From a virus (taxonomy: Duplodnaviria; Heunggongvirae; Uroviricota; Caudoviricetes), in the IMG/VR virus record IMGVR_UViG_3300045988_151382: a DNA stretch of 48,925 bases; one strand, 5' to 3'. Below are positions 2,904-46,266 of this stretch, piece by piece. The notes under the pieces were generated by a model. It saw nothing but the letters and a program-made list of their open reading frames with translations. It made no database searches and had not been told where the DNA came from. The position numbers and the translations under genes were made by a program. How positions within the stretch are numbered: position 1 is the stretch's first letter; every line of letters begins with the position of its first letter.

Positions 2904-3367
2904 AATAATTTACCTAACGCACTTCTAGTTTTTGACTCTATATTGCCAGCAATATCAACTAATGCTTCTTTCAGAGAGGTCTGTCCGACTTCCTGTAATT
3001 TAATGCCGACGATAATCACTCGTGGATTCCCAGTTGGACCGAAATAAGTCCATGATTCCTCTATATCTGTAATTATAAAATTACCAAAATACTGAATACC
3101 AATTACAACAGGATTTACTTCCTGAATTGATTGCATTGTCCTAAGTAATGAAAGCGCAGCCAATGGAACAATGCCAAGTGTTGTATCCAACCGCATATTA
3201 AAACTAACTTCATCCAGATCTGGACCTATATCCTCCAGAACAGGTTTAAGCCCAATAACATCATGGCGCGCTACACGACGCTTTGACGTCCTTTTAAAAT
3301 TGTTGAACGTATTCACCACTATTGATGAGGCAACAAAAGGCATTGTACCAAGCATACCCACAATCAT
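2900..3367 (-). CDS. Baseplate-associated protein, unassigned
   Basis: 155 aa ORF translationally coupled between V-like and W-like genes. Confidence 0.4.
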   Translation of the reverse strand: MIVGMLGTMPFVASSIVVNTFNNFKRTSKRRVARHDVIGLKPVLEDIGPDLDEVSFNMRLDTTLGIVPLAALSLLRTMQSIQEVNPVVIGIQYFGNFIITDIEESWTYFGPTGNPRVIIVGIKLQEVGQTSLKEALVDIAGNIESKTRSALGKLL

Positions 3368-3984
3368 GCCTGAGCCTCCGTTGTCGGAGCGTATTCCCCC
3401 TGAGCTGTGTGATGGTGGCCTTTAGATTTAATCCCATCAACATCTATATCACCACCAACAACCTTAACATTCCCAGAAATTGTAGCTGCAACACCTCCAG
3501 CAGAAGATCCTTTCATTCCACCTTTGAAGGTTAGTAATCCTTCAACTGTAGCATTTCCGGTAATGATGGTTTCTGGAGCATCAATAGTTACGGTTCCTGT
3601 AGCCTTAATGGTTACATCTCCGACAGCATCAACAAGGAGTAAATTAGATTCTCTGTCTATCTCAATACGAGTTCCGTTATTAAATCTAATGACGCGTTTA
3701 TTAACAGTATTAGATGGCGGCTTCTGTGTTTCATCATAAAAACTACCAAGAATAAAACCTTGTTGCGGCCCCGCGGGATGAAAGATACACAAAACTTGCT
3801 CACCAATATCTGGCATCCAGTAATCAGCATTCTTATCTGTATTTTTCACAATAACTGATAACTTTGCCGAAGTGACGTTATCCTGATCATCGAAAGTAAC
3901 TCTTGCTGTAACATCACCATCATCAATATCAGAAACAACGCCAACTCTTATAGTCTGACGTAATAATGTTTCTAAATCATTCAT
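3364..3984 (-). CDS. Baseplate spike/hub protein V-like
   Basis: 206 aa ORF; OB-fold-like N-terminus and beta-rich C-terminus with GG-repeats; position typical of gpV. Confidence 0.55.
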   Translation of the reverse strand: MNDLETLLRQTIRVGVVSDIDDGDVTARVTFDDQDNVTSAKLSVIVKNTDKNADYWMPDIGEQVLCIFHPAGPQQGFILGSFYDETQKPPSNTVNKRVIRFNNGTRIEIDRESNLLLVDAVGDVTIKATGTVTIDAPETIITGNATVEGLLTFKGGMKGSSAGGVAATISGNVKVVGGDIDVDGIKSKGHHHTAQGEYAPTTEAQA

Positions 3985-23974: not shown

Positions 23975-24175
23975 TTAATGCTCGCGTCGTCCGGCGACAA
24001 CTTCGGATTTGTATTTCAGGTCGCCCAGCAAGAATTGCAGTTTAAGCATCTTTGCCGCCGTGTAGTTTCCTGATTCCACAACCTCTTTCATGAGGTCATA
24101 AACGGCCGCAACATCATCAGCCAGGAACTCTTTGCGTTGCTGCTCAGTCGCACGTTTGAAGGAAATACGCATCAC
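23975..24175 (-). CDS. Hypothetical protein
   Basis: 66 aa ORF overlapping upstream gene by 4 nt. Confidence 0.35.
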   Translation of the reverse strand: MMRISFKRATEQQRKEFLADDVAAVYDLMKEVVESGNYTAAKMLKLQFLLGDLKYKSEVVAGRREH

Positions 24176-24441
24176 TCATCATCTCCTGCCGCACATACAA
24201 CCTCACAAAAAACATCAGCGGAATGTTTCTTTTTGAATGAATGGCGCTCAAAACCGCACTCAATATCAGGCGCAAAAACATCCACCACATACGGTCTTTC
24301 AGAATGTTTGTTTTCCCAACGATAAACCGTAGTGACGTTGAAATGTTTTAACGCTTCACGGTACTCAACGCTGCCCGTCAGGTTTTTTGAGGTCAGGTAT
24401 TGCAGGAGGTTTTTTACTACTTCACGGTCTTGTACTTTCAT
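24172..24441 (-). CDS. Hypothetical protein, first gene after promoter cassette copy 1
   Basis: 89 aa ORF; ATG preceded by GGAG within conserved leader. Confidence 0.45.
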   Translation of the reverse strand: MKVQDREVVKNLLQYLTSKNLTGSVEYREALKHFNVTTVYRWENKHSERPYVVDVFAPDIECGFERHSFKKKHSADVFCEVVCAAGDDE

Positions 24442-24553
24442 CGGGTTATCTCCGGTTTAACCAGGGCGGGTATCGCTCGGTTTCGGGTATAACCATAGGA
24501 AATTTTTTCCCACCTGTAAAGCACTTTTTATATAAATATATAATTATATAATT
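24442..24553 (-). promoter_or_regulatory. Conserved promoter-plus-leader cassette, copy 1
   Basis: In gene orientation: AT-rich motif, TTTACA, 17-nt spacer, TATGGT, then a conserved ~50-nt leader ending GGAGATAACCCGATG; near-identical copies at 32944..33060 and 41984..42096. Confidence 0.55.
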
Positions 24554-25141
24554 CTATGCCACTTGCCAGAGAGCATCATGCAACTGGATACCTCCATTGC
24601 ACTGGTTGCCCCAGCCATGCCAACCATCAGGTAAATCACCGCGAGCAAACAGCTCAATACGAGGAACATCACCTAACAGCCTTACCAGCTTGTCACGAAC
24701 CACATCAGGCTTCCGAGAATGCTCCAGACGAGGCGATGTAAACGACTGAATGATCCCCGCATCAAGGCGGGTCGGCAATTTGCCTTTTACCGCAAACAAG
24801 CAATCTTCACTGTTTGCACGAGTCATATGCCCCATCCCCATCACCAGCTTATCTGGTTGTCGGCTACCACATTTGTTCCATGTGAAGCCCTTCATGGTCA
24901 TAAGCCTGAATCCCCATGCTTTCACCACCAGCAACGCTTCTTCTGGCTGAGTCGGAACCCACCACATGGCCAACAAACACGATTCAGGATTAGCAAGCTG
25001 CCAGACAGGAATACGAGCAATATCCTCAGCTTTCATCGTTGGATACTTAAAACCAGCTCCACGATTCCCATCCTTACACTTATCTTTGTATTCCCAGGGG
25101 GGATCTGCATAAATCAGATTAAACAATGCAATTGCCTCCAT
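24554..25141 (-). CDS. MT-A70 family DNA N6-adenine methyltransferase
   Basis: 195 aa; N-terminal YADPPWEY motif (DPPW catalytic motif of the MT-A70 family). Confidence 0.7.
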   Translation of the reverse strand: MEAIALFNLIYADPPWEYKDKCKDGNRGAGFKYPTMKAEDIARIPVWQLANPESCLLAMWWVPTQPEEALLVVKAWGFRLMTMKGFTWNKCGSRQPDKLVMGMGHMTRANSEDCLFAVKGKLPTRLDAGIIQSFTSPRLEHSRKPDVVRDKLVRLLGDVPRIELFARGDLPDGWHGWGNQCNGGIQLHDALWQVA

Positions 25142-25449: not shown

Positions 25450-25525
25450 TGGTGGCCCCTACCGGATTTGAACCGATGACCGTGCGATTATGAGTCGCCT
25501 GCTCTAACCACTGAGCTAAGGGGCC
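25450..25525 (-). tRNA. tRNA with CAU anticodon (Met or Ile2/lysidine type), CCA encoded
   Basis: Minus-strand sequence GGCCCCTTAGCTCAGTGGTTAGAGCAGGCGACTCATAATCGC...GGTTCAAATCC...AGGGGCCACCA; 7-bp acceptor stem, D-loop AGCTCAGTGGTTAGAGC, T-loop TTCAAAT. Confidence 0.8.
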
Positions 25526-31884: not shown

Positions 31885-32943
31885 TCAGGCTTTCAATAGC
31901 GATTCTTTCAGATATCGGGCATCAGCCAGGGCGTTTGGAGTAATCTTGCGAACCCATGCATTACGGGTTGGACTCCACTTAAAGGCGCGTGATTTAAGCA
32001 GCGAACGAATGTTTGCCTCTGGTTTGCCAGGGAAATAAAACAGGATACGGTTATCCTCTGGATCTATCTCCATAGAAAAGCCGTCGTATTCTTCGCGCTG
32101 TGCTCCTGTTACAGACTTGACCGATTCAAGCTCCTTAATACGGCTCTGTAGTCGTTTGATTTCGGCATTATTGTTACTCAGTGAGTATGAAGGGAAGCCA
32201 ATGTGCCCACAGAAATCTCCGGCGAGTAACCCTTTGGCTTCGCTTTCAGTAAACTCAAGGTCAATTAATGCGGAAAGCTGCTGTAATTGGTCTTTTTTGT
32301 ATTTGCGAATAGCCTTATTTGCGGCCTTCATTTTGATGTGTGACTTCATGCAGCCTTGCAGCTTACGAAGCAACTTAAATAGCGCATCAGGATCATCAGA
32401 CGAAACTCCATTACGGCCGACACCTGCGGCTTTGCTTTCGTAGTACGATGCTCTGCTTTCACACTCAACAAACGATTTTCTGAATAACGCATCAGCTTTA
32501 GACAAACGGCGGCGATGGCCTTTCGCGCTATAATGGTCAACTAAAATCGGCTGGCCTAACGGGATCACATCCAACAGTTCATGCGCTCGCTTATGCGCCA
32601 CCGCACCTTCTTTTCTGGCTTTTTCTGCACGAGCAATATATCGGGCAAGACGCGCGTTCTGGCGTTCCTGATAGGTATTTACGTAATCATCTCCGCGCTG
32701 CTGCTGTTCAAGCCATGCTTTGCGCAGCTTTTCTGTTACGTCTACCAACTCTGCAGGGATACAACCTGTTTGGGATTCATAAGAGTGACCATCCTCATAA
32801 AGACGTCCATCGTCTTCAACAACGAAAAAGGTTTCGTGCTCATCGCTTTTGACCATACGGCCATTAACATGACGTAATCTATAGCCAGTATCAGTGCTCA
32901 ACAGGCTGTTAGGGTTGTTGATCCAGTCAGAAATAATTACTTG
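31885..32943 (-). CDS. DUF3560-like protein
   Basis: Start at internal ATG 32943 (MNKQVIISD) directly after leader cassette; motifs PLGQPILVDH, SSDDPDAL, MKAANKAIRK, GFPSYSLSN recalled from DUF3560. Confidence 0.5.
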   Translation of the reverse strand, partial: QVIISDWINNPNSLLSTDTGYRLRHVNGRMVKSDEHETFFVVEDDGRLYEDGHSYESQTGCIPAELVDVTEKLRKAWLEQQQRGDDYVNTYQERQNARLARYIARAEKARKEGAVAHKRAHELLDVIPLGQPILVDHYSAKGHRRRLSKADALFRKSFVECESRASYYESKAAGVGRNGVSSDDPDALFKLLRKLQGCMKSHIKMKAANKAIRKYKKDQLQQLSALIDLEFTESEAKGLLAGDFCGHIGFPSYSLSNNNAEIKRLQSRIKELESVKSVTGAQREEYDGFSMEIDPEDNRILFYFPGKPEANIRSLLKSRAFKWSPTRNAWVRKITPNALADARYLKESLLKA

Positions 32944-33060
32944 TTTATTCATCAGATTTCTCCGGTTTAACCAGGGCGGGTATCGCTCGGTTTTGGGTAT
33001 AACCTTAGGAAATTTTTTCCCACCTGTAAAGCACTTTTTATATAAATCTATAATTATATA
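32944..33060 (-). promoter_or_regulatory. Conserved promoter-plus-leader cassette, copy 2 (immediately downstream of Q-like gene)
   Basis: Same architecture and about 90 percent identity to copies at 24442..24553 and 41984..42096. Confidence 0.55.
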
Positions 33061-33122
33061 TTTATAGATTTTCCGATATTCCCGGTGCCTACAAATCACC
33101 AAAACAGCTCAAAATGACACTT

Positions 33123-38093: not shown

Positions 38094-38115
38094 AAAAAAG
38101 GCCCCCGAAGGGGCC
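38094..38115 (-). terminator. Rho-independent terminator (minus strand)
   Basis: Stem GGCCCC/GGGGCC with 4-nt loop followed by TTTTTT on the minus strand, just downstream of small ORF 38122..38244. Confidence 0.55.
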
Positions 38116-38121
38116 TAATCG

Positions 38122-38244
38122 CTACTTGCTGCTAATGTTTATCGTCACATTCAGAGCGTTATCAGTAATCTTCCAACCCTCTCCATGTGGCGTAAACAAA
38201 GCTCCAGTAACAACGATAAAAATACACATACAGTATTTTTTCAT
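38122..38244 (-). CDS. Small hydrophobic peptide (about 40 aa)
   Basis: MKKYCMCIFIVVTGALFTPHGEGWKITDNALNVTINISSK from internal Met of ORF 38122..38304; own terminator. Confidence 0.3.
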   Translation of the reverse strand: MKKYCMCIFIVVTGALFTPHGEGWKITDNALNVTINISSK

Positions 38245-38559
38245 TGTATGGCCCTTACAGGCCGTTTCACGGCATCCCCACCGACGAAAACAACGCGAGA
38301 GCAAGCACGGCTGCTTGTGCTTGCATGTACGGCAACGGAGAATCCTCCCCTAAAGTCGGTGCCCGGGTGCGAATCGGCGGGAAGGTCCACAGGTATTTTA
38401 CGATTATTTTAAGATTAGTAATAGGAAAGAAATTAAACGAAAAAACTCGTTTATTTTCACAAAATCAGTAACCTACCCACAATCTGTGAGTTTGCAGGCA
38501 CAACAAGAACCACAATTTTTTGAAGCATAATAGTGGACTATTATTACCTTTTGGGTAAA

Positions 38560-38840
38560 ATTAACTTGCTGCTTGTGCTTGCGTGGTTGTTTATACAACA
38601 ACGTAATGCTGAAAGGACCGCGAATCCGATCAGCACGAAAGAACCGTCCTCAATAGGGCGGTTTTTTTGTTTCTGCCTACCAATAAACCCACGCTATGTG
38701 GTTGTCTCTGTTAAAATCCCGCCGTATTGACATGAATGCGCCATTGGTGGACACTTTCCGAGCCGTAGCAAAATCTACGGTCGGGATTGGAACCCCGTAG
38801 ACACAATGGCGCATACCGCGTTAGCGGTTTTTTTATGCGT
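38560..38840 (+). ncRNA. Candidate regulatory RNA region upstream of the antirepressor operon; two intrinsic terminators
   Basis: Terminators at about 38644..38668 (ACCGTCCT/AGGGCGGT stem then T7) and 38815..38834 (ACCGC/GCGGT stem then T7); no ORF; repeated GATTGGAACC element. Confidence 0.45.
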
Positions 38841-39000
38841 AAAGCACTGCTACACCCAAATTATGGTGGGGCGTGCGGGGGAGTCGTAAGACTCGCCGGT
38901 TCGTCATTGTGTCCGGTAGTTCCAACCCTGCACGTCTCACCACCCAATGATTGGAACCTGACGGTGGTGAGTATCCTTAACCTTTAAGGGAATCATCACA

Positions 39001-39192
39001 ATGACAAACCTACCCCATGACTATTACGTCAACCTCGTAAAGATCCTTCTCAAGAAAGCCTCATACGCCGATAAATTCCGCCTGGCTGAAATCATCGAGC
39101 GCGAAGCTATGCGCATCGCCAGCAACGATAACGCTGTTTCTGTCGCAAAAATCTCCCTCGTAACCAAAGTAGTTATGGGAGGTGCAAAATGA
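39001..39192 (+). CDS. Small protein translationally coupled to antirepressor
   Basis: 63 aa ORF whose stop overlaps the ant ATG (ATGA). Confidence 0.4.
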   Translation: MTNLPHDYYVNLVKILLKKASYADKFRLAEIIEREAMRIASNDNAVSVAKISLVTKVVMGGAK

Positions 39193-40457
39193 AAACGCTT
39201 CCGACCGTTAACACCCTACAGCCTATCCTGCATAACCAAATCCCTGTCATTACTACCGAGTTACTGGCACAGCTTTACGGCGTATCTCCTGTACGCATTC
39301 GACAAAATCATCATGAGAATAAGGAACGCTTCATTGAAGGTAAGCACTACTTCAAAATTGAAGGTAACGAACTTCGAGAGTTAAAGCACAAAGTGACTCA
39401 AGATAATGATGTGAAGAACAAAAACTCTTTAAGAGATTCAGTTAATGACGCCCCCTCTAAAAGAGAGAGCGACGAGCACAGAGTAGTTTTAAACTACTCT
39501 GTTAACCACAAGGTAACTAAAAGTCACTCTGTGAAAATCGCCCGTAACGTTCGCTCCCTCATTCTCTGGACAGAACGCGGGGCTGCACGTCACGCTAAAA
39601 TGCTCGAAACCGATCAGGCATGGGATGTATTCGAACGGCTGGAAGACTGCTACTTCAACCAGAACGCGCAAACGGCCGCGACCGTAACCGTCTCACCAAA
39701 CAATGCTCGTGAGGTTGTCGATACGCTCAACGCTAAACCAATGTATTACGTTAAGGTGTGCAACAACGAGCCACTCACAACCTCAGCCGATGTTGCCCAA
39801 GCATTCAGCACCACAAACAATTCCATCGTTATGGCCATCGATGCGTTACGCATTCCTCGCACGGCTGCGGCGCGTCACTTCTTTAAAGAACAACGACCGC
39901 TGGAAGGAAGCGACCGCGAAATAACAATCTATCGCATGACAAAAGACGGATTTACCTTGCTCATGGAAAGTATCGACGGTCCAGGCGTGAAGGATATCAA
40001 GCTGGCCTACATTGAAGCCTTTAACGCTATCAGCAGCGTGTTAAAGGCAGAATACGAGCGAATGCTATACAACCGACTGTATCAGGAAACAAAGATTATC
40101 CGAACGGCAACAGAACATCATCGGCTATTAACGGAACCAAACTACCGCAAGACACTAATCAAAGAGTTTGACAAGGCGACGGAGAAAACTAAAGCGGCAC
40201 TAAATCTACCAACAATGACTAAAGATGATGTGATATCAGCCTTACTTCTTGATCTGCTCAGAAACGCCAGAGCACTTATCAGTTTTGACGAAAACCTGAA
40301 TCCTCAGCTCAAGCTACTACCACCGACAGGCAAAGTAGTCGACCAAGCAGATCACAACAGCATACTCAGCGTACTGGATGCAAACCTGCCAGCCAGGACA
40401 CTACAGGATCTGATAAAAACATGTGCTGATAAGCTGGCACAGAAAAGCAGACCATAA
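39189..40457 (+). CDS. Antirepressor (ORF6N/KilA-N-type N-terminal domain plus Ant-like C-terminal domain)
   Basis: 422 aa; N-terminal IPVITTELLAQLYGVSPVRIRQNHHENKERFIEGKHYFKIEG resembles ORF6N/Bro-N-type domains. Confidence 0.6.
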   Translation: MKTLPTVNTLQPILHNQIPVITTELLAQLYGVSPVRIRQNHHENKERFIEGKHYFKIEGNELRELKHKVTQDNDVKNKNSLRDSVNDAPSKRESDEHRVVLNYSVNHKVTKSHSVKIARNVRSLILWTERGAARHAKMLETDQAWDVFERLEDCYFNQNAQTAATVTVSPNNAREVVDTLNAKPMYYVKVCNNEPLTTSADVAQAFSTTNNSIVMAIDALRIPRTAAARHFFKEQRPLEGSDREITIYRMTKDGFTLLMESIDGPGVKDIKLAYIEAFNAISSVLKAEYERMLYNRLYQETKIIRTATEHHRLLTEPNYRKTLIKEFDKATEKTKAALNLPTMTKDDVISALLLDLLRNARALISFDENLNPQLKLLPPTGKVVDQADHNSILSVLDANLPARTLQDLIKTCADKLAQKSRP

Positions 40458-40465
40458 CTACAAGG

Positions 40466-40495
40466 GGCTACGGCCCCTTACTCTTTTCTCTCTTA
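40466..40495 (+). terminator. Rho-independent terminator after the antirepressor gene
   Basis: Stem AAGGGGC/GCCCCTT with 4-nt loop followed by a T-rich tract. Confidence 0.5.
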
Positions 40496-41197
40496 TCAAC
40501 ACCAGAGACTTTCTGAAAATCCTTTCGAATAGCGTCAGCATCACGCGCCAAGCCCATACTGGAACGTGTCGCCATATGACGAAAATGATCAACTGCCGGA
40601 AACAAAGAAATAATGGACCCAATAGCTTGCAGCAAACTTGCTTTTCTACGCATCATAATTCCACCATAACCGATAGCCACCCTTCAGACACAACCCCCCC
40701 CTCCCCCCATACAGGGTGCCCTTTACCGGAGTTCCGGCCCCTTCTCAAAAGCATCAAAAAAGCTCGAGATCGAGTACCGGAACTCATGCCACCAGATAGC
40801 TCCACATCGTTTCCAATGCTTCGCCGCCGTGTGCGCCCTGTGGCCCACAATCATGCCATTGGTCGTCTGATATACCTTCTTCTGCTCATTGAGCACAGGC
40901 GAGTTGTCGCACTCCTGCCTTTCTCAGACTCGACTTAGTTTAGATCGCTGTTCCTGGCTTGCGTCAGCACACTTTCCCCTTGTACGCATACCCGCGCGCC
41001 ACTCCGTCCAAAAACACCGAACCCAACGAAGTGGCAAAGACAACGACGCGAGCGTGAGTCTGAAACAGGCACCAGTAAAAAAGGGGTTGCAGGCGCAAAA
41101 AGATTTGATTATCTTTAGACGCAAGAAAGCCGCCCCAATCAAGAGGTGTCTTTTTAAATCCAGCCTACCAAGCAAGATTTAAATTTCAGACTGAAAA

Positions 41198-41222
41198 CCG
41201 CCCGGCAAGGCGGTTTTTGTCT
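41198..41222 (+). terminator. Rho-independent terminator (plus strand)
   Basis: Stem AACCGCC/GGCGGTT with loop CGGCAA followed by TTTTTG. Confidence 0.5.
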
Positions 41223-41266
41223 TTCTGGCGCTTACATTACACCACCATAAAACGATCCGTAAAGGA

Positions 41267-41602: not shown

Positions 41603-41983
41603 TTACTTAACGAGGAATAAAAATGGTTTATTGTTCGGCGGTGTAATCGGAGCTGGCTCGCTTTTGCTCATGCGATCAGTGTACCAGGCCAGCTCCTTGT
41701 CAAAGTAAGCCTGATTAAAATAGGCAATGAATGTAGTTTCAAATCCATAACGACCGCTAATACGCAGCATCTGATTGCCGTTCTCTGTTTCCAGGTATAC
41801 CTGGGCACGTTCCTGATTCTCCTTCAGCCAGGTTAAAGCCTCATCGCACGAGGACACACGATACTCATCATCGTAGCCGTCATCGATGCGGCTTGAAGAA
41901 GAACGGCAAATCACGCCAACAGAACCAGCCAGGATAGTTTGAATTTTAAGGAAAGCGTTTTTGCGGATTTTAATCATGCTCAT
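41603..41983 (-). CDS. Hypothetical protein, first gene after promoter cassette copy 3
   Basis: 126 aa ORF. Confidence 0.4.
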   Translation of the reverse strand: MSMIKIRKNAFLKIQTILAGSVGVICRSSSSRIDDGYDDEYRVSSCDEALTWLKENQERAQVYLETENGNQMLRISGRYGFETTFIAYFNQAYFDKELAWYTDRMSKSEPAPITPPNNKPFLFLVK

Positions 41984-42096
41984 CGGGTTATCTCCGGTTT
42001 AACCAGGGCGGGTATCGCTCGGTTTCGGGCATAACACTAGGAAATATTTTCCCACCTGTAAAGCGCTTTTTATATAAATCTATAATTATATAATTC
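41984..42096 (-). promoter_or_regulatory. Conserved promoter-plus-leader cassette, copy 3
   Basis: Same architecture as the copies at 24442..24553 and 32944..33060. Confidence 0.55.
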
Positions 42097-42104
42097 CATG
42101 AGCA

Positions 42105-42146: not shown

Positions 42147-42446
42147 TCAGATGTTAAACGCTATTCGTTTTCCTGTGGGAAGCTCAACATCCAGGCTTAA
42201 TTTGCCTCCCATAGCTTCAACGTAACGCTTTAATGTCGCCAGCTTTAAATCATTTCCGCGCTGCTCCAGCTTTGTTACTGCTGGCTGGCTTATACCCATC
42301 GCCTCAGCAACCTGCTTTTGTGATAACTGGAGTTCTTCACGCATCATCTGCAAGCCGACCTCAAGAATCATCTCATCTGCCATTTCTTTAATTCGCGCCT
42401 GGCTTTCCGGTGAACGGCTGGCAATCACCTCATCTAATGTTCTCAT
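42147..42446 (-). CDS. HigA-like XRE-family antitoxin
   Basis: 99 aa; HTH LSQKQVAEAMGISQPAVTKLE; directly downstream of toxin-like gene with ATG/stop overlap. Confidence 0.6.
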   Translation of the reverse strand: MRTLDEVIASRSPESQARIKEMADEMILEVGLQMMREELQLSQKQVAEAMGISQPAVTKLEQRGNDLKLATLKRYVEAMGGKLSLDVELPTGKRIAFNI

Positions 42447-42799
42447 TACTTGCTCTCCAGTGTGTTCAGATGTGCTGCAAACTCATCCTCAGCTATACGC
42501 ACCAGTTTTTTATAAAACCGCTTATCGTTACTTTTGTCTCCTGCACAAAGAACGATAGCCCGGCGAATCGGATCGAACGCATAAAAGGCTCTTATCGGAC
42601 GGCCAGAAAACTGAACGCGAAGCTCTTTCATATTTTTGTACCGAGAACCTTTTACGGTATCGGCATATGGCCTGGGTAACTCAGGTCCGTAAACCTGTAG
42701 CTTTTTCAAATCAGCCAAAACCTTTTCCTGAAGAGCGTCTTCTTGCTCATTTAGCCAGTCGTCAAATCGCTGGCTAAAAAGTACCGTCCACATGCTCAA
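42446..42799 (-). CDS. HigB-like (RelE-fold) toxin
   Basis: 117 aa; toxin-first arrangement characteristic of HigBA modules. Confidence 0.5.
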   Translation of the reverse strand: MSMWTVLFSQRFDDWLNEQEDALQEKVLADLKKLQVYGPELPRPYADTVKGSRYKNMKELRVQFSGRPIRAFYAFDPIRRAIVLCAGDKSNDKRFYKKLVRIAEDEFAAHLNTLESK

Positions 42800-43037
42800 T
42801 CCTATAACCTGTAGTTTATATCACTAACTATATAACCTGTGGGTTATAATTTCAAGAAAAACGGGGCCATTTAACATAATGGACGTTATCGGCACCACCG
42901 GATCACCGTTCATTGTCGGATCTAAAAAATCCGCTCAAAAGATCATGTTTTCCTGGGCGTTTTCCACCGTTTTTTATGTTGCTTATTTGTTAATGAAATC
43001 TCGTTTTCAGTTTCGCCTCATTTTCGACACGAAAGCC

Positions 43038-43328
43038 CTATTTTTGTGACTTTACTCCTGGCATATGGACTTCCCAGCGACGAATCCCCATAGCTGCGCA
43101 AAAATCAGCCACATAATTCAATCCCGCCCATTCGCGGATACCACCACGGGCTTTTTCAATGAAAACGGCAATCCCTTTTTTATTGAGAGCAAAAAGCCGC
43201 CAGCTTTTTGTCACTTCGTCCTGGGTAGCCACAACACAAGTGAAAGCTCCCATGCGATACAGGTCCAAGAACTCTTTGCGTGTTTTGCGTACAAGTTCCA
43301 TAACAAGCCTCATATTTGCATGTTTCAA
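43038..43328 (-). CDS. Hypothetical protein
   Basis: 96 aa ORF, coupled to upstream gene. Confidence 0.35.
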   Translation of the reverse strand: MKHANMRLVMELVRKTRKEFLDLYRMGAFTCVVATQDEVTKSWRLFALNKKGIAVFIEKARGGIREWAGLNYVADFCAAMGIRRWEVHMPGVKSQK

Positions 43329-43624
43329 ACATCTGTTTTGTTATCAATGAAGATTAACCCTAACCCAGCGAAGTAACACAGCAGCGCCCAGGCTGCATAC
43401 GGAATGCTGGATCTGGATGTGGACTCCTTTAACATCTGCCAGTTGCGAACATTGCGACTATCTTTTAAGCCTAGTTTTTTGGCCAACTGCGAGCCGCTCA
43501 TTCCGGTCAGGCCAATGACTGCCCGAACTTCTCCACATGTAGGAGATTCCCATTCATCCGCTTTTTTTAAACAAGCCGGATTCAACATTTTTAAAACAGT
43601 ATCTTTATCCATAACCATCTCCAT
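43325..43624 (-). CDS. Putative HTH protein with C-terminal transmembrane helix
   Basis: 99 aa; HTH-like GMSGSQLAKKLG and hydrophobic AAWALLCYFAGLGLIF. Confidence 0.4.
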   Translation of the reverse strand: MEMVMDKDTVLKMLNPACLKKADEWESPTCGEVRAVIGLTGMSGSQLAKKLGLKDSRNVRNWQMLKESTSRSSIPYAAWALLCYFAGLGLIFIDNKTDV

Positions 43625-43979
43625 TTATTATATCTACGATGGTAGGAAATCTTTTCCTATGTGGCAATAGAAATTTACTACATTGCGTATAAGACAAGTT
43701 TTCTATGTCTAATAGAAAATGATGTTTCTTACGTTTTGTCGCGTTCTGATTGCTACTGTGTGCGTATTTATCGACGTTTATTGATAAGGTCCGTCCCTTC
43801 CTCCTGCAAAGCCCGGCCGTAGGCCTTATTTCGGCCTTATATAAATTGATTTTGTATAGTTCGAAACGTGCCGTTTCGAAAAGGATGATCAGGCTGCTCC
43901 ATGCCTCCGGCAAGTGCCGGAGGAGGTATATTTGAGCGTAGCGACTCGAACCGGCGCGAGCTTTAGCTCGCTGCAAGGG

Positions 43980-44255
43980 CGAACATATTCACAGGCAAAG
44001 CCTGCGTAAGTTAAATAAAGAAAGTCTTAATAAAAGAAAGTGATTTTGCATTTATTTGTTTAGTGCATCTATTATAAAAAACCATTTGCATATACATATC
44101 AAAACTGTGGATAACTTTATTAGCCGATGCCTGTAAAGGCGATATTTTTGCTGTGTCCAGGTTTAGAGAAAATTAATTTAGACTATTTTTTGAACAGATA
44201 TTTTATTGCGACGTAGATAATCCTCCGGTAAAACCGGATTCATCATTCAGGTGGG
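43980..44255. other. Candidate plasmid replication origin region with consensus DnaA box
   Basis: AT-rich region immediately downstream of repA; TGTGGATAA (reverse complement TTATCCACA) at about 44106..44114. Confidence 0.5.
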
Positions 44256-45104
44256 TTAATGTTGGAGTGATTTCCAGGTCTTTCTTAGCCTGTTATAACG
44301 CTGCTCAACGAGGGATCGTAAATATGCAAGGTCAGCACCTGGATACATGCCATCAGCAAATTCCTGGCTAACCTCTCTAGTGATTTGATGACGAAGTTCG
44401 GCCTCTCCCTTTTCCCGGACAAGACGCGCAGCTCTCTCCGCTGCTTTCTGTTTTGCCTTTATCTCTCTGGCCGTCTTCCTCTGGCGCCATACATTCTCCA
44501 TCTGCTCCTGAATAACAATACGCTTATAATCAGCCTCCGTTATCGCTTTTTTAAGCCGTTCGCTATTCTTCGCATTGAAGTAATTAAGTTTCTGGCTAAC
44601 CGCACGTCTCCATGCTTGTTCAGTAATACCAACGGTTTCCAGCAGTTGATCACGAATCTCTATTTTCGCTGGCCAATACTGTTTATTCACCCGATCCCAG
44701 CGACGTTCATAATCAATAAAACCTAACGCTTTCAGTTGCGACAACGCCCTTGTACAGCGCGTTATAGACTTGTTCCCAGCTTCGGATACGGTAGACAGGC
44801 CGCAAAAATCAGCCAACGCCTCAGCACTAGCCAGAACCCGCTTAGAAATGATGTTTACATGGTGCAAAATCGCAGCGATCACAGCATTAATCGCCCGACG
44901 ACGATGCTCGTTTATCCGGCGCTTCCGCCCTGACGGTTGATTAACGTAGAACGCAACCTCACACGTAAGATCACGACCATTAATGCGCTGTAAAGCATCA
45001 GATAACACCAGCGGCAGCTTGTGCGTATGGTGCTTTGGAGGCTGGAACTCCGGCGACAAATTACAAACGTAAGCGGAACGTAGAGACGGCATTGGTCTAT
45101 CCAT
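44256..45104 (-). CDS. repA: Replication initiator RepA, IncFII RepA1-like
   Basis: Segment CGLSTVSEAGNKSITRCTRALSQLKALGFIDYE resembles recalled IncFII RepA1 block; start uncertain (ORF open to 45236, internal ATG at 45104). Confidence 0.65.
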   Translation of the reverse strand: MDRPMPSLRSAYVCNLSPEFQPPKHHTHKLPLVLSDALQRINGRDLTCEVAFYVNQPSGRKRRINEHRRRAINAVIAAILHHVNIISKRVLASAEALADFCGLSTVSEAGNKSITRCTRALSQLKALGFIDYERRWDRVNKQYWPAKIEIRDQLLETVGITEQAWRRAVSQKLNYFNAKNSERLKKAITEADYKRIVIQEQMENVWRQRKTAREIKAKQKAAERAARLVREKGEAELRHQITREVSQEFADGMYPGADLAYLRSLVEQRYNRLRKTWKSLQH

Positions 45105-45136
45105 ATGTTCGCTCTTGCGTCCACGGAAAACCAACG

Positions 45137-45229
45137 TATAATGGGAGTTGTCGAGGCGCCCATGGATTGTTGTTGTTGGTTTTCCGTGGATGTCGCAAGA
45201 AGCCCGCAGATTTATCTGCGGGCTTTTTG
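45137..45229 (+). ncRNA. CopA-like antisense RNA candidate opposite the repA leader
   Basis: TTGCGT-N16-TATAAT promoter, 15-bp inverted repeat CCACGGAAAACCAAC/GTTGGTTTTCCGTGG, then terminator GCCCGCAGA-TTTA-TCTGCGGGC-TTTTT. Confidence 0.5.
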
Positions 45230-45702
45230 TTTCCATATCTGGTCAGTTTCCAACCAGACACCCACAATCATAACCACGTTACGTGGTTTTAAGAGAACTC
45301 TACCACAACACTTTCGGTCATGCACGAAGTCTCTCACTGATCGAACGATAATCCACCAGTAAAAGGATCTAAATTGGATCTCGTTTTGCGAGCATCATAC
45401 TACTGGCCTAACTCCAGTCAATGATTCCCAGCCAGAAACCTGCGGTAAACTCATCGTTCAGCAATATGCTGTCCGGCTTCAAAGATAAGGTGACATCATC
45501 CCTTAACAGCGCGGCCAGTTCAGTTAAAGGGCTGTTCTGATTTAATGCTGGCCACTCATACCTGGTAATAAGTGGTCAGTCTTAACACTCACCATTTGAT
45601 TGCACCCGTGTTGACGATTTGTTACTGGATATCAGACACGCTGGATAGCCAGTAGAAACATACCATTAAAATTATTACAATAATTGGTCACATGATTATC
45701 TT

Positions 45703-46266
45703 ATGCTGAATAATAAAGATATGAATATTAATGAACTTAAAGACTGTATTCACTATGAAGTAATCGGTAGCGAGCGTCCTTTCTCCTGGCGAAAGGCAAT
45801 TGTTCGCGCAATAAAACATAGAAGGGTTCGTTATTTATTTTGGTGGCGCATAGCCAAATACCTTTTTGATAAAGGCGGATACTGTCGGAAGATTGCGGGA
45901 AAAATAGAACGTTTCATTCTTGATAAATATAATGTAACAGTCCCTTTAACTGTAAATATAGGGAAAGGCTTTGATATTTCTTATCTCAACAGTGTTGTTA
46001 TCGGTCACAAAGTAACAATCGGTGAAAATTGTTCAATTAAGCCCGGAGTAACTATTGGACTTCGCGGGGAATTTAATGATATGGATATTGTTATAGGGCA
46101 TAATGTGACCATTGGTTGTAATGCCACCATTCTTGGTGGCAAAGTGCGTATAGGAAACAATGTCACAATAGGTGCTCATGCATTGGTATTGCATGATATT
46201 CCTGATGATTCAACATTCATCACTAAATTTCAGTCTGAAGTTATCTGCTCGTCCTCCCGAACATAA
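45703..46266 (+). CDS. Hexapeptide-repeat (left-handed beta-helix) acyltransferase
   Basis: 187 aa; tandem hexapeptide repeats [21 protein letters not shown]...[34 protein letters not shown]; AT-rich codon usage. Confidence 0.7.

Follow-up and report, generated by a model that had tools for sequence, protein, structure and literature searches.

KorC and Aca-Type Repressors

KorC is a global DNA-binding transcriptional repressor of IncP-1 and IncU plasmids (PMC7314908, PMC7414963). In plasmid RP4, the klcA gene is under strong repression exerted by KorA and KorC, with an induction of approximately 120-fold on entering a new cell (PMC7314908, PMC7414963). The Aca-type HTH proteins (the C-terminal domain of AcrIF24, Aca3, Aca1) are five-helix Xre-type HTH proteins with a hydrophobic last helix serving as the dimer interface; they act by negative feedback through a palindromic operator between −35 and −10. 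The C-terminal domains of AcrIF24 dimerise by hydrophobic contacts, and mutations of F212, H216, and Y217 abolish both dimerisation and DNA binding; its operator lies between −35 and −10 of the acrIF23-24 promoter (PMC9001735). We failed to find in the literature any paper on phage vB_YpM_41 or on KorC in phage-plasmids.

The two small genes described here, ORF-A and ORF-B, form a locus that resembles KorC of IncP-1 (RK2/RP4, pA1) and IncU RA3 plasmids in several respects. ORF-A belongs to the same size class (85–95 aa) and resembles KorC in its recognition region as well as in its hydrophobic C-terminus. As in the KorC systems, several 17-bp palindromes with TAGG...CCTA ends are present per replicon, lying over the core promoter, and the promoters and leaders that ORF-A would regulate have homologues in klcAp and kleAp. 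Within the operators, the inner half-site is AAA in the analyzed DNA and GCA in IncP-1; ORF-A has its own promoter beside an IncFII-type origin, whereas korC closes the klcA operon; and neither a KorA operator nor korA/korB partners were seen in the window. The candidate targets also differ, being genes of a 126-aa protein, a DUF3560 protein, and an 89-aa protein of a phage-plasmid instead of klcA and kle. With the Aca-type proteins, the locus shares a homologous or similar five-helix fold with its hydrophobic last helix, the position of the palindrome, and the negative-feedback logic.

The Phage-Plasmid and Its Gene Neighborhood

The window, i.e., the whole stretch of 48,925 nucleotides that was analyzed, represents a phage-plasmid of E. 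coli; it is ~48 kb long, carries genes of the myovirus type, and encodes an IncFII-type RepA. Across 1.46 kb surrounding ORF-A and ORF-B, its identity was 100% with the E. coli plasmid CP025877.1, 98.7–99.6% with dozens of E. coli plasmids that are non-mobilisable and 47–52 kb in size (the 48.5-kb plasmid of ATCC 25922 among them), and 98.7% with the Yersinia phages vB_YpM_41 and vB_YpM_44. The annotated relative pTD225C4_47 contains terminase, portal, capsid, contractile tail, tail-fibre, and lysis genes and also encodes ParA, a CI-like HTH protein, and the IncFII-type RepA.

The initial annotation had correctly placed the two genes between a HigBA-like pair and the origin region:

42147..42446, HTH_3 antitoxin, on one flank of ORF-A/ORF-B
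42446..42799, Gp49/HigB-like toxin, on the same flank
42855..42827, predicted higBA promoter, TTGAAA-17-TATAGT
44106-44114, DnaA box TGTGGATAA, in an AT-rich region between ORF-A/ORF-B and repA
44256..45236, IncFII RepA gene, on the opposite flank

The toxin and antitoxin region (42147-42855) has its own promoter and palindromes. Paired 18–19-nt repeats at 42803-42848 (TATAACCTGTAGTTTATA and TATAACCTGTGGGTTATA) overlap the predicted higBA promoter and are probably the HigA operator.

Several other features of the element were recorded. Rfam models detected isrK (38762-38834) and C4 antisense RNA (38859-38947) on the plus strand, directly 5′ of an ORF6N/Rha anti-repressor gene (39189-40457, plus strand); together, they make up an immunity module resembling immI of P1/P7. 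The minus strand has a ryfA-like RNA at 38094-38390 and a tRNA-Met (CAT) gene at 25450-25525. The ~800-nt segment that separates the anti-repressor gene from a 101-aa HTH gene (40460-41260) contained just short, overlapping ORFs of low credibility; it may have a regulatory role or specify a non-coding RNA. In the interval from repA to the tail-fibre genes, a 187-aa hexapeptide-repeat O-acetyltransferase similar to EpsC/CysE/WcaB (E 7e-23) was encoded at 45703-46266 on the plus strand; its place is taken by a Hin-type DNA invertase in the ATCC 25922 plasmid, vB_YpM_41, and pTD225C4_47. The difference may reflect an exchange of cargo with an effect on how surface polysaccharides are modified or tail fibres switched.

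Gene Starts and Coding Status

The minus strand contained both ORFs, at the positions given in the initial annotation (43325..43624 and 43038..43328). These coordinates, however, delimit the longest ORFs, and the likely starts are at 43612 and 43301:

43325..43612, minus strand, ORF-A, korC-like gene, 95 aa; start ATG 43612, maximal ORF to 43624
43038..43301, minus strand, ORF-B, phrog_4595, 87 aa; start ATG 43301, maximal ORF to 43328

The starts were set by RefSeq/GenBank relatives, PHROG profiles, and homologue alignments, all of which agreed. ORF-A begins with MDKD... and has GGAG 6 nt 5′ of ATG 43612; ORF-B begins with MELV... and has GAGG 6 nt 5′ of ATG 43301. The genes are then separated by a gap of 23 nt. 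The previously proposed 4-nt overlap (TTGA) requires ORF-B to start with the TTG at 43328, which would give it nine extra residues that are not conserved. An N-terminal extension seen in 97-aa “homologues” (P0002, P0003, P0010) was rejected: these sequences were frameshift chimeras with the overlapping frame.

In comparisons with diverged homologues, the differences by codon position were 52 (third) versus 27 and 21 for ORF-A and 51–67 (third) versus 24–34 for ORF-B. ORF-A matched phrog_8351 (3e-59), ORF-B matched phrog_4595 (2.5e-47), and both are annotated as CDS in RefSeq/GenBank relatives, which are 98.7–98.8% identical across the region. Thus, the predominance of third-position differences, the strong PHROG matches, and the CDS annotation in relatives indicate that both genes are real, as had been assumed. 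ORF-A and ORF-B are probably co-transcribed. Their description as a coupled pair is not supported: the overlap depends on a start that has no backing, and in relatives ORF-A was found without ORF-B and ORF-B without ORF-A.

Similarity of ORF-A to KorC

On sequence similarity, ORF-A is a clear homologue of the KorC family of plasmid repressors. It had 53% identity over 80 residues (E 3e-24) with the annotated KorC (85 aa) of the IncP-1 plasmid pA1, in an alignment that takes in the C-terminus IPYAAWA(I/L)LC..AGLG. A tblastn search against plasmids retrieved annotated korC genes, including that of Sphingomonas plasmid pA1 (52.5% identical), and 3,928 plasmid records contained ORF-A homologues. 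P0027, the remotest of the homologues retrieved (52–54% identical), is encoded in IncP-1-type contigs with the gene order ssb-trfA-klcA-klcB-P0027-kleE-korA-incC-korB; following klcA-klcB, it therefore occupies the korC position. Among 50,697 phage records, KorC-like proteins were found only in this phage-plasmid family and in one Pseudomonas phage.

Along with similarity over its full length, ORF-A has the small single-domain HTH architecture and, in silico, the 17-bp promoter palindromes expected of KorC. The initial annotation had recognized no family for this gene and had named a match to a housekeeping plasmid regulator as evidence that would speak against its proposal; KorC is such a match. 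Curated libraries (Pfam, NCBIfam, PADLOC) yielded a weak “mobile mystery protein A” HTH match for ORF-A and nothing else useful. AcrIE10, considered as a KorC-like plasmid regulator, was rejected as an unrelated RHH protein.

Fold of ORF-A and Its Hydrophobic C-Terminus

The HTH segment noticed in ORF-A is real. In the PDB, a profile of ORF-A homologues matched AcrIF24 in its C-terminal HTH domain (E 1.6e-7) as well as Aca3 (2.4e-3). The AF2 model of ORF-A (pLDDT 83.6) is a compact helical single HTH domain of five or six helices, the last of which spans residues 72–81 and is followed by a low-confidence tail. The best PDB fold match of the model was AcrIF24 (TM 0.70, 31% identity); Aca1, Aca2, HipB, and C-proteins, which are dimeric Xre-type repressors, were also matched. 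The similarity of ORF-A to the Aca-type proteins, at 31% identity by fold alignment and a profile E of 1.6e-7, is nevertheless much weaker than that to KorC. ORF-A also differs from them in having no adjacent validated anti-CRISPR and in having several distant candidate operators.

The C-terminus had been described as a TM helix anchoring the protein in the membrane. The hydrophobic stretch itself is real (residues 71–89, PYAAWALLCYFAGLGLIFI, 19 residues, Kyte–Doolittle mean of 1.77), but, by homology and modelling, it is not an independent transmembrane segment. The C-terminus is common to ORF-A and annotated KorC (IPYAAWAILCDLAGLGVIW against IPYAAWALLCYFAGLGLIF), and the Kyte–Doolittle maximum of annotated KorC was 1.57 versus 1.77 in ORF-A. 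The AcrIF24 profile alignment passes through IPYAAWALL of ORF-A, and in the HMM alignment Y72, A76, and L77 of ORF-A correspond to F212, H216, and Y217 of AcrIF24. A tail anchor would be a hydrophobic segment of ~20 residues outside the globular domain; residues 72–81 lie within the HTH domain. Since the hydrophobic tail is shared with KorC and aligns with the dimerisation helix of AcrIF24, a membrane anchor is not supported. From the alignments and the model, the stretch is best read as a dimer-interface helix with a short hydrophobic tail.

Candidate Operators and Promoter Cassettes

Palindromes of one type were found in four predicted promoters, three of which belong to repeated cassettes:

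43639..43667, minus strand, predicted sigma-70 promoter of the ORF-A/ORF-B operon, TTGCCA-17-TACCAT, from a consensus scan
43643..43659, unstranded, candidate operator O1, TAGGAAATCTTTTCCTA, perfect 17-bp palindrome in the spacer of the ORF-A promoter
42038..42054, unstranded, candidate operator O2, TAGGAAATATTTTCCCA, 71 nt 5′ of the ATG of the 126-aa gene 41603..41983
33006..33022, unstranded, candidate operator O3, TAGGAAATTTTTTCCCA, 5′ of the DUF3560 gene 31885..32952
24496..24512, unstranded, candidate operator O4, TAGGAAATTTTTTCCCA, 5′ of the 89-aa gene 24172..24441
41984..42098, minus strand, promoter/operator/leader cassette, copy 1 of 3; 92% identity among copies
~32953-33066 and 24442-24556, minus strand, cassette copies 2 and 3, ~115 nt each

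With at most one mismatch allowed, a scan of the window found 4 operator-type sites versus 0.02 expected, and 4 were reached in none of 100 shuffles. All four candidate operators are in promoter spacers 5′ of minus-strand genes; O2–O4 are each inside the spacer of a TTTACA-17-TAnnGT promoter, ~71 nt before the gene. We infer from its sequence and position that O1 is the putative autoregulation site of ORF-A. An alternative −10 for ORF-A, TATAAT (43628-43633), was rejected: it is not conserved in an Enterobacter relative (L018), unlike the TTGCAA-17-TACCAT arrangement found there.

Each cassette consists of TTTACA, a 17-nt spacer bearing the operator, a weak −10, a conserved leader of ~55 nt, and a GGAGA-N5-6-ATG end. 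The cassettes align to the klcA and kleA promoter regions of IncP-1 beyond the operator, with equal operator-to-ATG spacing; the shared blocks are GTGCTTkACAGG, the operator, CCGrGC..CGCCC.GGT, and ACCGGAGA...CCGATG. The operator of RK2 KorC is a palindrome of the 17-bp TAGG...CCTA form. In IncP-1 loci, the palindromes TAGGGCATTATGCCCTA, TAGGACATTTTGCCCTA, and TAGGGCATTTTGCCCTA are located 56–72 nt before klcA and kleA, and both their 17-bp TAGG-N9-CCTA format and their position match those of the window operators. An AT-rich palindrome, ATATAATTATAT, was observed 5′ of the cassette −35, at the place taken in IncP-1 by the KorA operator GTTTAGCTAAAC; a second regulator may bind there.

The four sites were present at equivalent positions in pTD225C4_47. 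In the Enterobacter relative (L018), whose ORF-A homologue is 62–69% identical, TAGGAAAATATTTCCTA is located between TTGCAA and TACCAT with 17-nt spacing, while the flanks have diverged. A Serratia relative encodes a KorC-like ORF of 32% identity and has changed palindromes, TAGGA(T/A)AAAAAGTCCTA, before this ORF and two more genes; by sequence, repressor and operator appear to have changed together. The retention of the sites in pTD225C4_47 and the Enterobacter relative and their change alongside the repressor in Serratia support an operator function. In this Serratia relative, plasmid pJSRIV006_2 (L022; 3104-3743, 3781, and 6121), the altered 17-bp palindromes before the three genes are TAGGATAAAAAGTCCTA and TAGGAAAAAAAGTCCTA, and the KorC-like ORF (~3131/3155..3442), which is unannotated, lies directly 5′ of an ORF-B homologue.

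Kle or Klc domains were absent from the first genes behind O2–O4. In pTD225C4_47, the cassette of the DUF3560 gene heads a gene run reaching holins and lysozyme, and that of the 89-aa gene heads a run toward ParB-like genes and terminase.

Distribution of ORF-B

ORF-B encodes a basic protein (pI 9.9) with a confident alpha/beta model. No family match was obtained against Pfam, NCBIfam, PADLOC, and PDB sequences, in agreement with the initial annotation, which had also proposed an accessory cargo role that still stands for this gene. A thioredoxin reductase match in the PDB sequence search was dismissed as chance. The fold search gave no informative match, the best being ribosomal protein eL38 and the FtsH periplasmic domain, and a structure search of BFVD returned uncharacterised phage proteins and nothing else. 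ORF-B showed no similarity to KlcA, KleA, KleE, or neighboring IncP-1 proteins.

Searched exhaustively, 1.84 billion representatives yielded 23 matches, several of them spurious repeats; the long multi-repeat proteins P0040, P0044, P0045, and P0047 were rejected as homologues because the similarity was repeat-driven. The profile search found 209 clusters; every one came from Enterobacterales and carried the label “hypothetical” or “bacteriophage protein”. ORF-B shares the family motif ARGGxREW..L..L..F....G...WEVH with phrog_4595 prophage proteins (e.g., SPN3UB gp57), to which it is 44–56% identical at equal length. The prophage members, however, stand alone 5′ of dinI, whereas ORF-B is located behind a korC-like gene beside a plasmid origin. 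In the nin region of prophage loci (L024-L032, L020), ORF-B homologues were observed 5′ of the dinI homologue, between the replication genes and ninG/Q; the two genes are adjacent in the Salmonella loci and SPN3UB and separated by one small ORF in the Klebsiella loci.

Citrobacter contains close homologues of both ORF-A and ORF-B on contigs of equal length (48,584 bp), which suggests that it keeps the pair, and in Serratia a KorC-like ORF immediately precedes the ORF-B homologue. In Enterobacter relatives, the korC-like gene is followed directly by hicAB, ORF-B being absent. ORF-B homologues with no KorC-like neighbor were found in Salmonella and Klebsiella lambdoid prophages, phage SPN3UB, and metagenomic contigs. 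Because ORF-B occurs alone in prophages and is missing in Enterobacter, it is to be regarded as optional cargo and not as an obligate partner. Judged by its homologues, ORF-B is mobile cargo drawn from the pool of genes found in enterobacterial lambdoid prophages, placed here under the predicted korC-like promoter.

Proposed Regulation and Alternative Explanations

The sequence evidence as a whole is best explained by an autoregulated KorC-type multi-promoter repressor accompanied by ORF-B as optional prophage cargo, an explanation to which we assign a probability of about 0.75. In this scheme, ORF-A would dimerise via its hydrophobic C-terminal helix and bind the 17-bp palindromes TAGGAAA-N3-TTTCCyA; occupying sites between −35 and −10, it would repress four promoters, including its own, where the result would be negative autoregulation. 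The three other putative targets share the cassette whose IncP-1 homologues are the kil promoters under KorC control. In a newly entered cell lacking the repressor, a burst of expression of the ORF-A-controlled genes would be followed by tight low expression; we infer this burst and shut-off by analogy with the KorC-repressed klcA of RP4 and with Aca repressors. ORF-B, 23 nt downstream and presumably on the same transcript, would follow the expression programme of ORF-A. Our best guess is that its product is an accessory protein acting at establishment by binding nucleic acid or a host factor, and an entry-phase accessory or anti-defence role is compatible with the data.

A more far-reaching version, which we consider unlikely, is that the KorC-type repressor was recruited as a second master switch of the phage-plasmid, silencing three phage operons, with ORF-B as an entry-phase effector. 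If it were true, the silenced operons would be those that lead into lysis and packaging genes in relatives, and ORF-B (phrog_4595) would be a new anti-defence or host-takeover effector, delivered in a burst by a negative-feedback circuit.

The locus could alternatively be an anti-defence locus of the Acr–Aca type, in which ORF-A is an Aca-like autorepressor and ORF-B an anti-CRISPR or other effector produced in an initial burst. The nearest solved relatives of ORF-A (the AcrIF24 HTH, 1.6e-7, and Aca3, 2.4e-3, with Aca1 and Aca2 by fold) fit this explanation, as does the position of O1 between −35 and −10, like that in the acrIF23-24 promoter. ORF-B is small, variably present, phage-borne, and without a known family, and klcA, the best-known KorC target, is an anti-restriction gene. 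We nevertheless find this explanation clearly improbable. ORF-A is far nearer to KorC than to any Aca and has three more candidate operators at distant operons, and the HTH-first gene order is unusual for acr–aca operons. As for ORF-B, no solved structure matches it by sequence, its fold matches are eL38 and FtsH and not Acr, it is found in hundreds of prophages with no adjacent Aca-like HTH, and it does not correspond to a known or demonstrably functional anti-CRISPR next to the regulator.

There is a small chance that the repressor has ORF-B as a functional partner, i.e., a co-repressor, an anti-repressor, or a DNA-binding accessory protein, comparable with korC-kfrC of plasmid RA3. The probable co-transcription, the retention of the pairing in E. 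coli, Citrobacter, and Serratia in spite of only 32% identity of the Serratia KorC-like gene, and the very basic character of ORF-B (pI 9.9) agree with such a role. However, repressor and operator occur without ORF-B in Enterobacter and Klebsiella relatives, and prophage homologues of ORF-B have no KorC-like neighbor.

A type II toxin–antitoxin system, with ORF-A as HTH antitoxin and autorepressor and ORF-B as a plasmid-stabilising toxin, is scarcely credible. Its appeal comes from the two small genes with the HTH gene first, their place beside the replicon and another toxin–antitoxin pair, and the promoter palindrome typical of conditional autoregulation. Yet co-occurrence is not obligate, ORF-A existing without ORF-B in Enterobacter and ORF-B standing alone in many lambdoid prophages and phages with no ORF-A homologue beside it; the genes do not overlap at the supported starts; ORF-A falls in a family of global repressors; and ORF-B matches no toxin family in PADLOC, Pfam, and NCBIfam and has a fold that is not toxin-like.

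Least credible of all is a membrane-anchored HTH protein acting with ORF-B in entry exclusion or membrane-linked sensing: the 19-residue stretch (PYAAWALLCYFAGLGLIFI, Kyte–Doolittle mean 1.77) speaks for it, but this stretch is conserved in KorC, a DNA-binding repressor in the literature, its first half is the last HTH helix aligned to the dimer-interface helix of AcrIF24, the ~8 hydrophobic residues past the helix are too few to span a membrane, and ORF-A has neither a signal nor a second transmembrane segment.

Biological Significance

The pair is mostly ordinary, ORF-A being a further member of the known KorC family in a phage-plasmid setting, and the initial proposal of a membrane HTH protein in a coupled pair of no recognized family is largely explained by known biology. 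The false lead of a membrane-tethered regulator is thereby removed. A gene annotated as “hypothetical protein” in the inspected E. coli phage-plasmid and phage records receives a name and a testable regulon, and phrog_4595 is flagged as a family of small conserved prophage proteins without an assigned function. The KorC family is tied to the solved HTH structures of AcrIF24 and Aca, which explains its hydrophobic tail as a dimer interface. What deserves attention is that kil–kor-type circuitry of broad-host-range conjugative plasmids, including homologous promoter/leader cassettes, has been transplanted into a phage-plasmid, which bears on how plasmid maintenance is coordinated with phage gene expression in hybrid elements.
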